Shown here: piece after piece, positions 32,108 to 57,354 of the stretch | Numbering within the stretch: the first letter of the stretch is position 1 | Layout of the letters: each line of letters opens with the position of its first letter | Notes under the pieces: generated by a model | Seen by the model: only the letters and a program-made list of their open reading frames with translations | Database searches by the model: none | What the model was told of the DNA's origin: nothing | Source of the DNA: Eledone cirrhosa | Taxonomy: Eukaryota | Assembly (NCBI GenBank): GCA_964016885.1 | Contig: OZ024762.1 | Span: 8,680,001 to 8,744,000 of the forward strand | Direction: 5' to 3' | DNA length: 64,000 nt | Made by a program: the position numbers and the translations under genes

Positions 32108-32305
32108 ATACGTAGGTCCCGGGTTGAGTCGGGGATAACCACAGTAAGTAAGGTACTCAATACATGGCAGAGTAACATTTTTTTATTTTATAGAAGGAGC
32201 TTCTACAGGACTAGTACTGTTTCATTCAGATGAAATCTTCAGGAAGCTCCTGAAGATTTCATCTGAATGAAACAGTACTAGTCCTGTAGAAGCTCCTTCT
32301 ATAAA
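32108..32305. mobile_element. Head-to-head HHR element; intact core 32197-32249(-); single copy at 57193-57332(+)
   Basis: gagcttc-CTGAAGA-TTTCATCTGAAT-GAAACAG-TACTAGTC-CTGTA-gaagctc, with a 7-bp stem I. Confidence 0.85.
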
Positions 32306-32451
32306 ATATATATATATATATATATATATATTAGTATTTTGGCCCCTTACTTGTTGACCGGTCATTGTAAGATAGATTAGGCCGAGTACTACTAATTCAT
32401 AAAATTAGCCGTCGAAACGGCTTGAGCTCAGACGTCGGGGTCCTACTCGTT

Positions 32452-38978: not shown

Positions 38979-39037
<59 letters not shown>

Positions 39038-39542
39038 CAAAGAAAGTGTGCTAAGATAAGTGTGGACCATAACGCACCAGATTACTCGATACATAGGGTA
39101 GTAGAGTGGGTAATAGAAAAAGAGTCAGCTGTGGGAGTCCTACCTTTTTTTCTATATATTTATAATCGAAGTAATCATTTCTTTTTCCTTTCTGAAAAAT
39201 GTATATGAATGTTGACTGTACTGTGACACACTGATAGTACACGTAAAGGAACTAAAAATGGTAATATGATTTCGGAGCATATTCTCTTAGGAGTGAGGGA
39301 ATATGCTCCGAAATCAATAGACGTGTCCGTCGAACCTGCGGGTCCAGAATCAGACAGATCCCTACAATGATCGCGTCTCGAGCTGTCCGCCGACGAAACA
39401 ACTGTAACAGACAATAAATTGAGTTCTGATGCATCACTGATTTTCGTTTTCTATTCCATCATACTCTGCTCTGTAAGAGCATAGAGTTCTCAACTGGCAT
39501 ACCGCCTATGGAAGCATCTTAGCTACCATTAGACACACACAA

Positions 39543-39649
<107 letters not shown>

Positions 39650-40217
39650 CAGGATGTCCCAAAAAATATATACACACTTCAACAGCATTCAAATAAATAT
39701 AAGTATACAGTTTTGGGGGACATCCTGTGTGTATATATATATATAGAGAGAGAGAATTAGCATATCTATGAACATATGCGTACAGATGTACACTAATGCT
39801 AGCAAATACATAAGTTATGTCATAGTACCTAGGTGGTAGTAGGCTTTGTCATAGTACCTGTAGTGGTAGTAGGCTTTGTCATTTTACTACCCCACTCCTT
39901 CCGACTAGCCTCAGTGTCACGTGATTGATTCTTTAGAATCTGCCATTTGACCAGAAGCAGTGAACTTTTTCAGTGCTTTGGAATTCAGTCCTCGCTAGCT
40001 GTTCCATCCACCGAATTATTATTATTTTTATATGAGTCCCTAGTGTCCGCGCACTGCCTGGAGACTTAGCTGAGAATAGACTCCCTGATGACGTAATGAA
40101 TTCTCGACAGTTACATTACGTAACTATCTTTATCCCATTACAGAAACTAATTAGTTGGAGTGAAAATTTTAGTAAGTAAGTTAATTTTTAATTTTTAAAA
40201 TTTTCTTATTTTACGTC

Positions 40218-40262
<45 letters not shown>

Positions 40263-40313
40263 TAACTTGATTAGTTAGTGCGTGTGTTCTTGCATGTGTG
40301 TGTGTGTGCATAG

Positions 40314-40357
<44 letters not shown>

Positions 40358-40676
40358 ATGTGTGTATATGTGTGTGTGTGTGTGCGTGTGTGCGTGTGTG
40401 CGTGTGTGAGACACACCATCCAGCCACTGATACAAACCAGTATGGTTTATAATAAGTATATGGGTCAACAGAATGTTGACCTACTGACAAGTAGATATAA
40501 AACTAGGTCAAACCAAGGTGGCTTAATTCTGTCATGGCGTCATTACCATATTACACATTGTACAACCAGTCGGTGATACAGTATAGCTTAGTTATGAATA
40601 GTTATATGTAACCTGCCCCCTGGTTACATATATATATGTATATATATATATGTATATATATATGTATATATATATG

Positions 40677-40764
<88 letters not shown>

Positions 40765-40882
40765 GTTATGTAATAAACAACATAAGGCAATTATTTCATT
40801 TACCAGTGGTTTCTTAAAACCAAAAAAATTTTGCTTTCAATCATCAGAATGAAAAAATCATCAGAATGAAAAAATCCATATA

Positions 40883-40942
<60 letters not shown>

Positions 40943-40947
<5 letters not shown>

Positions 40948-43412
40948 ATAAATGCTCTGAAATAGCGATATATATGTGAATATAGACATAGAATATTCGA
41001 AAATATTCTGTATGTTTATAATAAACATTTTGAAGACCTAATCGCTATAGAATAGAATACGTCACGTATTACAATTAGATTCTCGATAAAAGCAAGGGAA
41101 GTAATCTACGCGTTTCATTCTTGTTAGAAATCATCAGGACCACATATCCAGTGCTTTTATCGAGAATGACACAGCTAGAGACTTATAGAATACTTAGCTG
41201 TGTACAGGAACTGGTTTGAAAGAGCGGTTGCCGGTCCGGCAGAAATTAGAAATTGGAATAAATGCTCTGAAATAGCGATATATATGTGAATATAGACATA
41301 GAATATTCGAAAATATTCTGTATGTTTATAATAAACATTTTGAAGACCTAATCGCTATAGAATAGAATACGTCACGTATTACAATTAGATTCTCGATAAA
41401 AGCAAGGGAAGTAATCTACGCGTTTCATTCTTGTTAGAAATCATCAGGACCACATATCCAGTGCTTTTATCGAGAATGACACAGCTAGAGACTTATAGAA
41501 TACTTAGCTGTGTACAGGAACTGGTTTGAAAGAGCGGTTGCCGGTCCGGCAGAAATTAGAAATTGGAATAAATGCTCTGAAATAGCGATATATATGTGAA
41601 TATAGACATAGAATATTCGAAAATATTCTGTATGTTTATAATAAACATTTTGAAGACCTAATCGCTATAGAATAGAATACGTCACGTATTACAATTAGAT
41701 TCTCGATAAAAGCAAGGGAAGTAATCTACGCGTTTCATTCTTGTTAGAAATCATCAGGACCACATATCCAGTGCTTTTATCGAGAATGACACAGCTAGAG
41801 ACTTATAGAATACTTAGCTGTGTACAGGAACTGGTTTGAAAGAGCGGTTGCCGGTCCGGCAGAAATTAGAAATTGGAATAAATGCTCTGAAATAGCGATA
41901 TATATGTGAATATAGACATAGAATATTCGAAAATATTCTGTATGTTTATAATAAACATTTTGAAGACCTAATCGCTATAGAATAGAATACGTCACGTATT
42001 ACAATTAGATTCTCGATAAAAGCAAGGGAAGTAATCTACGCGTTTCATTCTTGTTAGAAATCATCAGGACCACATATCCAGTGCTTTTATCGAGAATGAC
42101 ACAGCTAGAGACTTATAGAATACTTAGCTGTGTACAGGAACTGGTTTGAAAGAGCGGTTGCCGGTCCGGCAGAAATTAGAAATTGGAATAAATGCTCTGA
42201 AATAGCGATATATATGTGAATATAGACATAGAATATTCGAAAATATTCTGTATGTTTATAATAAACATTTTGAAGACCTAATCGCTATAGAATAGAATAC
42301 GTCACGTATTACAATTAGATTCTCGATAAAAGCAAGGGAAGTAATCTACGCGTTTCATTCTTGTTAGAAATCATCAGGACCACATATCCAGTGCTTTTAT
42401 CGAGAATGACACAGCTAGAGACTTATAGAATACTTAGCTGTGTACAGGAACTGGTTTGAAAGAGCGGTTGCCGGTCCGGCAGAAATTAGAAATTGGAATA
42501 AATGCTCTGAAATAGCGATATATATGTGAATATAGACATAGAATATTCGAAAATATTCTGTATGTTTATAATAAACATTTTGAAGACCTAATCGCTAGCT
42601 GTGTCATTCTCGATAAAAGCACTGGATATGTGGTCCTGATGATTTCTAACAAGAATGAAACGCGTAGATTACTTCCCTTGCTTTTATCGAGAATCTAATT
42701 GTAATACGTGACGTATTCTATTCTATAGCGATTAGGTCTTCAAAATGTTTATTATAAACATACAGAATATTTTCGAATATTCTATGTCTATATTCACATA
42801 TATATCGCTATTTCAGAGCATTTATTCCAATTTCTAATTTCTGCCGGACCGGCAACCGCTCTTTCAAACCAGTTCCTGTACACAGCTAAGTATTCTATAA
42901 GTCTCTAGCTGTGTCATTCTCGATAAAAGCACTGGATATGTGGTCCTGATGATTTCTAACAAGAATGAAACGCGTAGATTACTTCCCTTGCTTTTATCGA
43001 GAATCTAATTGTAATACGTGACGTATTCTATTCTATAGCGATTAGGTCTTCAAAATGTTTATTATAAACATACAGAATATTTTCGAATATTCTATGTCTA
43101 TATTCACATATATATCGCTATTTCAGAGCATTTATTCCAATTTCTAATTTCTGCCGGACCGGCAACCGCTCTTTCAAACCAGTTCCTGTACACAGCTAAG
43201 TATTCTATAAGTCTCTAGCTGTGTCATTCTCGATAAAAGCACTGGATATGTGGTCCTGATGATTTCTAACAAGAATGAAACGCGTAGATTACTTCCCTTG
43301 CTTTTATCGAGAATCTAATTGTAATACGTGACGTATTCTATTCTATAGCGATTAGGTCTTCAAAATGTTTATTATAAACATACAGAATATTTTCGAATAT
43401 TCTATGTCTATA

Positions 43413-43416
<4 letters not shown>
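40943..43416. mobile_element. Retrozyme-like tandem array of 310-bp monomers, each with a type I HHR; ~5.3 units (-) joined head-to-head to ~2.6 units (+)
   Basis: ttggaataaatgctctg at 40943, 41253, 41563, 41873, 42183 and 42493; inversion at ~42596. Core gtggtc-CTGATGA-TTTCTAACAAGAAT-GAAACGCGTA-gattac at 41101, 41411, 41721, 42031, 42341 (-) and 42630, 42940, 43250 (+). Confidence 0.9.
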
Positions 43417-43450
<34 letters not shown>

Positions 43451-43689
43451 AGTATATATATATATATGTATGTATAAATATATATTCAGCGAGAATCGTA
43501 TTTCGGCTGGTAGAAAAAGCGAAACGATGAACGATCGGTTACAGCCAGTTTCAACAGAAAGAGGTAGAGAATTCTGGCCGGTTTTGGCCGGTTTGAACAT
43601 TAAAGGGTTTTAAAAAAAACCTTTGAAACGGAGAAACTGATCTAATTATTCGCGTGACATTATTTCTTATGACTCCGCCATGATTCTGA

Positions 43690-44440
43690 CACACACACAT
43701 ACACAGATATAGATGTAGTCATGTACACACACTCACATGGACTTACATACATTCACATACACACACACACACATCCATGGATACAGATGTAGTCATGTAC
43801 ACACACTCACATGGACATAGATACATTCACATACACACACACACATACACAGATATAGATGTAGTCATGTACACACACTCACATGGACATAGATACATTC
43901 ACATACACACACACACATACACAGATATAGATGTAGTCATGTATACACACTCACATGGACATAGATACATTCACATACACACACACACATACACAGATAT
44001 AGATGTAGCCATGTACACACACTCACATGGACATAGATACATTCACATACACACACACACATACACAGATATAGATGTAGTCATGTACACACACTCACAT
44101 GGACATAGATACATTCACATACACACACACACACATACACAGATATAGATGTAGTCATGTACACACACTCACATGGACATAGATACATTCACATACACAC
44201 ACGCACATACACAGATATAGATGTAGCCATGTACACACACTCACATGGACTTACATACATTCACATACACACACACACACATCCATGGATACAGATGTAG
44301 TCATGTACACACACTCACATGGACATAGATACATTCACACACACACACACACAGATATAGATGTAGCCATGTACACACACTCACATGGACATACATACAT
44401 TCACATACACACACACACACACATACATGGATATAGAAAT
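43690..44440. repeat. ~72-bp CA-rich minisatellite, about 10 copies
   Basis: Repeating agatatagatgtagtcatgtacacacactcacatggacatagatacattcac. Confidence 0.9.
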
Positions 44441-44442
44441 AG

Positions 44443-44475
<33 letters not shown>

Positions 44476-44525
44476 GATATAGATACAGCCATATACACAC
44501 ACACACACAGCTACCCCCACACACA

Positions 44526-44559
<34 letters not shown>

Positions 44560-44783
44560 ACACAAAAACAGCACCACAGATACACACACACAGCCCCCCG
44601 CCCCTCCCCGCCACACCACACGCCATCCTCACACACAACACACACACAGCCACCACACACTCACACACATACAAACACAGCCCTCCCCTCGCAGCTGCCC
44701 CCCCGCCACACTCAGTACCCCCACACTTCCTCAGCCCACACACATACGGCCACACCACACACACATACACACACAAAGACAGC

Positions 44784-44820
<37 letters not shown>

Positions 44821-44943
44821 GTAATAGACTGGTTCCCATAACTAAGTAAATCTATTAATAGAGAACTCGAAACAAAGAAACAAGAGCAACAACCGGCGAA
44901 GAAACGAAATAAAAAGGAAAATCTTAGTAAAGAATATATTCAT

Positions 44944-45668
<725 letters not shown>

Positions 45669-56611: not shown

Positions 56612-57354
56612 CACCGTTTCCTCTCACCCCCTTTTTGCTATATGTCTCTCCACCACTCTCCTACACACCCTTTGAACTCTCTTCCCACACACTTTTCACC
56701 TGAAGAAGGGCTTATGCCCGAAACGTCGTTCCCCACCACCACCCCACTCTCAAGAGCGTGAAACTAATAAACCTTTGTTCGTACTGCCTCTCTGTTTTGT
56801 TCTCGTTCAATTTTTCACTATATATATATATATATATATATATGTGCCATGATTCGGTCTTGTTAAATGTTTAATTTCTATTACCAACCCACCTAAATTT
56901 CCCTACTATATATCTGTTGAATTACTATTCTTGGGGTTTTTATTTATTTATTTTATTTATTTTTTTATTTATTTTATTTATTTATTCTTTTATCTATTTA
57001 TTCATTTATTTATTTATTTACTTATTTATTTATTTCAAAAAAGCACTCTGGCTAATTGACCACTCCCCAAAGAAAAAACGGCCTGTGCCATGAAGTGGTC
57101 CTGTGTACCTAAATACCCCCCCCCCCCCCCTTCCACCACCCCTCCCTTACCACTACCTAAATGTATAAATACCAGAACTTAATATGACACCCAGCTTCCT
57201 GAAGATTTCATCTGAATGAAACAGTACTAGTCCTGTAGAAGCTCCTTCTATAAAATAAAAAAAATTTACTCTGCCATGTATTGAGTACCTTACTTACTGT
57301 GGTTATCCCCGACTCAACCCGGGACCTACGTATATATATATATATAGAGAGAGA

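Follow-up and report, generated by a model that had tools for sequence, protein, structure and literature searches.

The array and its repeat unit

The window analysed here is a 64,000-nucleotide stretch of the Eledone cirrhosa genome (contig OZ024762.1, positions 8,680,001 to 8,744,000), and it contains two inverted arms of a non-coding tandem repeat that meet at their 5' ends (Table 1). The left arm, on the minus strand, comprises 5.34 units with an exact 310-nt period and zero mismatches, and the right arm, on the plus strand, comprises 2.65 units of 310 nt, likewise without a mismatch. Unit positions are numbered from the base after the predicted hammerhead cut. The longest ATG-initiated frame of the unit encodes 30 aa and the longest stop-to-stop frame 59 aa, the GC content is 34.5% (below 50%), and the reverse transcriptase (RT) plus GIY-YIG ORF of an autonomous Penelope-like element (PLE) is absent from the 310-nt unit. 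There is no LTR layout, both arms passing directly into (TA)n, and since (TA)n lies on both flanks no target-site duplication can be read.

The initial annotation described identical non-coding 310-nt units with eight hammerheads, an inversion near 42596 by means of a 3-nt cta microhomology, and (TA)n at both outer ends. All of these features were recovered, with the eight hammerhead cores divided between the minus strand (five) and the plus strand (three); the left boundary, which had been placed at 40943, was corrected by one nucleotide.

Table 1. Coordinates of the array, its flanks and its predicted RNA motifs in the window
Feature	Position	Strand	Remarks
(TA)n target tract, left	40878..40941
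Left arm	40942..42597	-	Long end (3') at unit position 165; 5' end at 60
35-nt tail (unit positions 131-165)	40942..40976	-	At the left-arm end only; between two inferred RT start sites
Five left-arm hammerhead cores	41107-41137, 41417-41447, 41727-41757, 42037-42067, 42347-42377	-
5'-to-5' arm junction	42595..42597		CTA common to both arms, 3-nt microhomology
Right arm	42595..43416	+	5' end at unit position 239; short end (3') at 130
16-bp helix, perfect	42606-42621 with 42679-42694	+	Encloses the hammerhead
Type I hammerhead, first plus unit	42630..42672	+	Predicted cleavage after 42666; recurs every 310 nt
Further plus-arm hammerhead cores	42946-42976, 43256-43286	+
(TA)n target tract, right	43417..43485

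Predicted hammerhead and RNA fold

The predicted hammerhead consists of a 6-bp stem I, a CUGAUGA core, a stem II of 4 bp with a U.U mismatch beneath it, GAAA and a palindromic stem III. Metazoan non-LTR retrozymes are tandem arrays of 150-450 bp units that each carry a type I hammerhead, and the array, with its 310-nt unit and eight full conserved cores, agrees with this DNA-level definition, as do many other loci described below; the retrozyme identity proposed in the initial annotation was thereby upheld. The complete type I hammerhead that had been assigned to each unit stands for its core and stem I and has to be qualified for stem II, at the base of which the U.U mismatch lies. Stem III, given as ACGCGU, is indeed a palindrome, but it has a single base pair and a palindromic loop, and two units must be folded together for it to form. 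The 16-bp helix reported around the hammerhead is perfect.

The monomer folds clearly better than its shuffles (z -4.0 linear, -3.9 circular), and so does the hammerhead domain (z -6.2). In the circular monomer prediction pairing is firm in stem I and in the 16-bp helix, stem II has a probability of about 0.15 and stem III is missing, while joint folding of two ribozyme domains yields a double hammerhead whose palindromic stem III has 6 bp. On these models the hammerhead looks weak, given the U.U under stem II and the low stem II probability. The Rfam scan proposed as a check returned no hammerhead reaching threshold: none was found at E<=1 in positions 39000-45000, and a single unit gave HH9 with 17.7 bits (E 0.034), below the gathering score of 52, under a best-hit filter that masks the rest of clan CL00010.

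An older subfamily, approximately 70% identical to the 310-nt element, shares both of its end sites (copies at L121-L140, L049:105-502 and L101:1466-1773) and has a longer stem III in some copies. In its core U3-A8 replaces C3-G8, an exchange reported as a natural covariation of the hammerhead core in the text of PMC4209133. An alignment of 11 rows, one young unit and ten older-subfamily units, was used to analyze covariation: 93% of the cells pair, and 12 of the 29 pairs change on both sides, among them the core pair C3-G8, and the enclosing 16-bp helix also shows compensatory changes. None of 500 shuffles reached the observed value, and slid controls gave 0-2 both-side pairs. The comparison of sequences supports a hammerhead fold conserved across the subfamilies; because the older copies are decayed and related, the covariation speaks for the fold and not for activity.

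Genome-wide abundance, arms and ends

In the 3.0-Gb genome there are 4,541 exact matches to the 37-nt core and 17,216 matches to a degenerate core pattern. Patterns designed on the ends matched 798 long ends and 1,008 short ends on the forward strand, where the short pattern may match internal variants, and reverse-strand end counts were inflated by overlapping matches; doubling the forward-strand counts puts the number of insertions at an estimated 1,600-2,000, most of them with two arms. The window array is a real insertion of a young and very abundant non-coding retrozyme. The single young insertion seen in the initial annotation is confirmed as such, but it is not an isolated oddity: the genome-wide count, which had been proposed as a check, shows that it is not a one-off, and its two-armed form is the rule of the family.

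Among 20 loci picked only by their likeness to the window unit, 18 were two-armed with their 5' ends meeting centrally, and 17 of these 18 paired a long with a short end, one arm ending at positions 165-172 and the other at 127-139. A total of 53 long and 52 short ends were listed on C1 (0-97.5 Mb), forming 41 divergent pairs, of which 40 were long-plus-short, one was short-plus-short and none was long-plus-long; the sole short-plus-short pair (L147) turned out to be long-plus-short on inspection. When 20 of the 23 unpaired C1 ends were fetched, nine proved to be long-plus-short pairs masked by SNPs and 11 were single-armed. Taken together, 81 loci were considered, 39 of them fetched for being paired, and 68 were two-armed, 67 of which obeyed the long-plus-short rule. 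Most of the 13 single arms (10 short, 3 long) have TA-rich sequence next to their 5' end.

The exact end positions seen most often are 165 and 130, 35 nt apart (tail range about 26-45), and a TA run follows the 3' end in 122 of 148 cases under a strict 14-nt score. Arm lengths are uncorrelated across loci (rho 0.14), and in 54 of 67 loci each arm is longer than one unit. The initial annotation had noticed that the two outer ends fall at different points of the unit; these points are two fixed sites about 35 nt apart that correspond to the PLE tail, and such unequal fixed ends therefore indicate the enzyme class.

The 5' ends follow no such rule. Only 2 of 136 lie within 3 nt of the cleavage site, and their phases are uniform (p 0.31). 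Overlap between the arms was tested at 48 clean junctions out of 66, after 15 with inserts or nearby differences and three unanchored ones had been omitted. Of these, 38 overlap by at least 1 nt (expectation 46.5%) and 27 by at least 2 nt (expectation 18%). Within each of two pairs of loci, L045 with L148 and L101 with L180, unlike haplotypes have identical junction phases; the phase of L101/L180 lies within the 16-bp helix, a hint at hot spots for junctions.

Relation to Penelope-like elements

According to the text of Craig et al. 2021 (PMC8557442), PLEs show an inverted 5'-truncated copy, a tail of 30-40 bp at one end and targeting of (TA)n. The text of Frangieh et al. 2024 (PMC11167929) describes a purified PLE that cleaves both strands, extends both, and begins synthesis at a pair of adjacent sites inside the RNA that match the genomic tail; hammerhead cleavage was dispensable and the main substrate was unprocessed RNA. 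The inverted 5'-truncated copy, the tail at one end and the microsatellite target that mark a PLE-mobilised element were all found in the retrozyme insertions. Two-strand priming at a (TA)n site, which had been suggested from the window array, is now backed by many loci, and we regard insertion by PLE two-sided priming as very probable.

At least four young TA-targeting PLE families are present in the genome, named here PLE-A, PLE-C, PLE-D and PLE-E. PLE-D, which has an 887-aa ORF and encodes RVT_1 and GIY-YIG domains, is itself two-armed with a 41-nt tail, the closest in length to that of the retrozyme, and its arms were long-plus-short in all eight pairs with both ends seen. The tails of PLE-A measure 45-60 nt and that of PLE-C 77 nt, and PLE-E has a single end class in which no tail was seen. 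PLE-C (L181-L210), PLE-D (L211-L240) and PLE-E (L241-L265) are very young and form multi-copy tandems with long ORFs that end in (TA)n. PLE-A is a large young family with about 24,000 first-look candidates, a GIY-YIG relic of which lies in the window at 14257-14613 (+); its ORFs exceed 900 aa and contain a long Asn-rich stretch and a CxxxxCxxC linker, and it is two-armed in (TA)n and has a hammerhead of its own.

BLAST of the retrozyme against the 3' regions of the four young PLE families revealed no likeness, alignments of the end regions against three of them remained at shuffle level, and no homology of the pLTR/RT-binding region to a named autonomous PLE was found among the four families sampled. 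Since the anatomy of the tail matches and none of the four PLEs is alike in sequence, the enzyme class is well supported and no individual partner is named. In a tblastn search with five PLE proteins, none of the single-armed loci that were checked was attached to a coding PLE arm. Two candidate links were rejected: a match beside PLE-A in L098 belongs to the older retrozyme subfamily, and a retrozyme arm facing a PLE-E arm (L104:525-3970), considered as a hybrid insertion, is separated from it by a 200-N gap and proves nothing.

Proposed insertion route

The DNA itself shows that the insertions are two-armed, obey the long-plus-short rule, target (TA)n, have randomly placed 5' ends joined with microhomology, keep to a single haplotype each and conserve the hammerhead fold. 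The reading that we prefer, with a probability of roughly three in four, is that the window array represents one insertion of a hammerhead repeat, in which the RT/endonuclease of a PLE primed on both (TA)n strands and likely copied a single 310-nt circle for several laps. Existing arrays would be transcribed, neighbouring hammerheads would cut as dimers, and the monomer would be closed by a host ligase, some circles possibly undergoing A-to-I editing within their helices. A pair of PLE enzymes would then nick both strands and start at two RNA sites; both cDNAs would roll, halt at random and anneal by 1-5 nt at their 3' ends, so that each could prime the second strand of the other. A minority of events would copy multimeric RNA.

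Haplotypes and the nature of the template

About 720 units were typed in the 81 loci. Every insertion has one haplotype through both arms, and none of the 81 loci is a haplotype patchwork. L107 (diverged), L111 (a duplicate of L163 across a gap) and loci with fewer than 2.5 units were left out of the haplotype counts, and the 70 loci with at least 2.5 units comprised 26 haplotypes, 19 of which were seen once, each fixed across the units of its locus. A new change that is fixed in all units at once implies a one-unit bottleneck, and passage through the cut site without stops or scars implies a closed or uncut RNA. The 310-nt circle proposed in the initial annotation is thus favoured, and a monomer circle is probably the main template, with two loci (L044 and L172) arguing for a multimer in some events.

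L044 and L172 each have a variant that both arms carry in their first lap and in no other, lying 310/277 nt from the ends in L044 and 272/246 nt in L172, the offset being the tail as expected from one pair of start sites; both arms therefore came from one molecule, and a multimeric one. Other variants behave differently: a minority variant is common to both arms at unmatched laps in L174 and L156, and variants are repeated within an arm in L152, L156 (with a spacing of 7 units) and L157, so later duplication or conversion is indicated in these four loci.

The main alternative retains PLE two-sided priming and supposes that insertions usually copy the uncut, multimeric transcript of an array already in the genome, so that the hammerhead would be incidental to insertion. 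This is consistent with the lap-matched variants of L044 and L172, with the weakness of the predicted ribozyme, with the use of unprocessed RNA by a PLE in vitro (text of PMC11167929) and with the multimeric retrozyme RNAs described from axolotl in the text of PMC7229834. However, with 184 shorter-arm units, 13-27 lap-matched shared variants would be expected from multimers against the two that were seen, on the assumption that the donor load was half to all of the present 0.146 single-unit changes per unit; at a quarter of that load the test is marginal (P 0.036). Haplotypes unique to one locus are fixed in all its units, and arms should shorten in each generation, yet derived haplotypes reach 28 units. 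We therefore consider a multimer as the usual template unlikely.

The preferred reading also agrees with a strand bias among the changes. On the RNA strand, the inherited changes in a minimum spanning tree of the haplotypes include ten A>G and one T>C, compared with nine A>G and 18 T>C among changes confined to a single unit (Fisher p 0.003). A20G stands on four haplotype backgrounds, and nine of the ten A>G sites checked are predicted to be paired. ADAR editing is the likely cause of this bias; selection for pairing could also produce it, as a change from A-U to G.U retains the pair. Either cause, editing or G.U-compatible selection, implies an RNA stage. That two PLE RTs roll simultaneously on one host-edited ribozyme RNA circle from two fixed starts until they meet midway, so that ADAR edits are written into germline DNA and drive the evolution of the element, is a fuller proposal to which we give even odds.

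Growth after insertion, by which short PLE-inserted copies would expand locally like satellites through unequal crossing-over (a scenario in Li et al. 2026), appears very improbable. The few variants repeated within one arm (L152, L156 and L157) would suit it, but 109 substitutions are found in one unit only, as against nine variants recurring in a minority of units (two of the nine being one alignment-ambiguous deletion). The growth of one arm would leave unexplained why both arms so often exceed one unit, and unit length and haplotype are equal across the inverted arms.

Still less credence can be given to viroid-like RNA-to-RNA copying or to movement between organisms, with the genomic arrays as by-products of capture by PLEs. 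The strand-biased changes do arise at the RNA level, but the hammerhead is on one strand only. Five sequencing runs under other organism labels (X3, X5, X6, X9 and X16) each contain one closed contig of 331-340 nt with a single haplotype, which might point to movement; these haplotypes are nevertheless ones of this genome, their depth of 10-34 is what trace contaminating long reads would give, and the approximately 70% identical older subfamily indicates long residence in the genome. The contigs are likely contamination. Matches under 17 organism labels were not read as horizontal transfer, the five examined having yielded a single low-depth contig each. No RNA run containing the element was found among the matches listed.

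An artefact of assembly or library, such as a fold-back chimera, as the source of the inversion or of the unit number is hardly credible, since, although one array of this kind was duplicated by the assembly across a gap (L111 and L163), fold-back predicts symmetric ends where the observed ones are systematically unequal by the tail, arm lengths are uncorrelated, and at least 13 minus-to-plus joints occur in contigs of run X1 (which may be the assembled sample itself) at other phases and with the unique left flank outside them.

Comparison with known systems

Metazoan non-LTR retrozymes have been described from coral, mussel, axolotl and newt, the last as satellite 2 (text of Cervera and de la Pena 2020, PMC7229834). 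The element shares with them non-coding tandem units of 150-450 bp, one type I hammerhead, a GC content below 50% and a stable fold; as in the axolotl motifs, its palindromic stem III is weak and its stem II has a basal U.U. The arrays in that text are head-to-tail, whereas the element here has two arms whose fixed ends in (TA)n are unequal; both cleavage and circles were demonstrated there, whereas the element here is known from DNA and its cleavage is predicted. The text of PMC7229834 makes no mention of array orientation, a microsatellite target, octopus or cephalopods.

PLE mobilisation via a circle was proposed for animal retrozymes in the texts of PMC7229834 and PMC7761336. Li, Clavereau and Pollet 2026 (bioRxiv 10.64898/2026.07.22.740005) regard animal retrozymes as non-autonomous PLE derivatives, their text relying on co-occurrence and pLTR homology in Xenopus and discussing local tandem expansion. 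That proposal rests on homology, whereas no pLTR homologue was found here and the evidence is the anatomy of the insertions; in its text a tail, octopus or molluscs are not mentioned, and inverted appears only within a reference title. With EN+ PLEs (texts of PMC8557442 and PMC11167929) the element shares the inverted 5'-truncated copy, a 30-40 bp tail, (TA)n, two RT starts and the cutting and extension of both strands. Unlike them, it has no ORF, and where they form partial tandems of a 3-4 kb element its arms are multi-lap copies of 310 nt. Descriptions of retrozyme insertions with two arms and a tail, or of editing marks in them, were not found in the texts consulted.

Retrozymes and the proposed link to PLEs are known, and the insertion anatomy is absent from those texts. 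Inverted insertions are also produced by LINE-1 twin priming, in which two target ends prime on one RNA and the inversion is joined by microhomology. The element differs in having no poly(A), in that both starts are fixed and internal, and in that the arms overlap in the template over many units.

With two precisely placed putative start sites on an RNA of 310 nt, a known target sequence, and candidate PLEs that are young, intact and resident in this very genome, the family makes it possible to reconstruct the insertion step of a retrozyme in vitro. It also suggests a source for the second strand of PLE insertions, namely two first-strand cDNAs priming each other, and it may be a case of RNA editing turned heritable in a mobile element. 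If two RTs do act on one circle, well over a thousand products of rolling-circle retrotransposition have been sequenced in this genome.

Neighbouring hammerhead families and repeats

A short non-coding hammerhead family with a similar stem II was observed in the window at 25720-25870, 32130-32310 and near 57197, and also in L043, L092, L093, L097, L098, L104, L105 and L133. Its copies are often small two-armed (TA)n insertions with long and short ends about 70 nt apart. Another retrozyme family is represented in L081:8700-9900 (-) by a tandem of approximately 460-bp units with a related hammerhead. Two further repeats adjoin the target tract of the window array. Directly to its left, at 40765-40877 (-), lies a degenerate copy of another hammerhead-bearing repeat, which is also found in L094 and has a high depth in run X1; to its right, at 43488-43640, depth evidence indicates another high-copy repeat.
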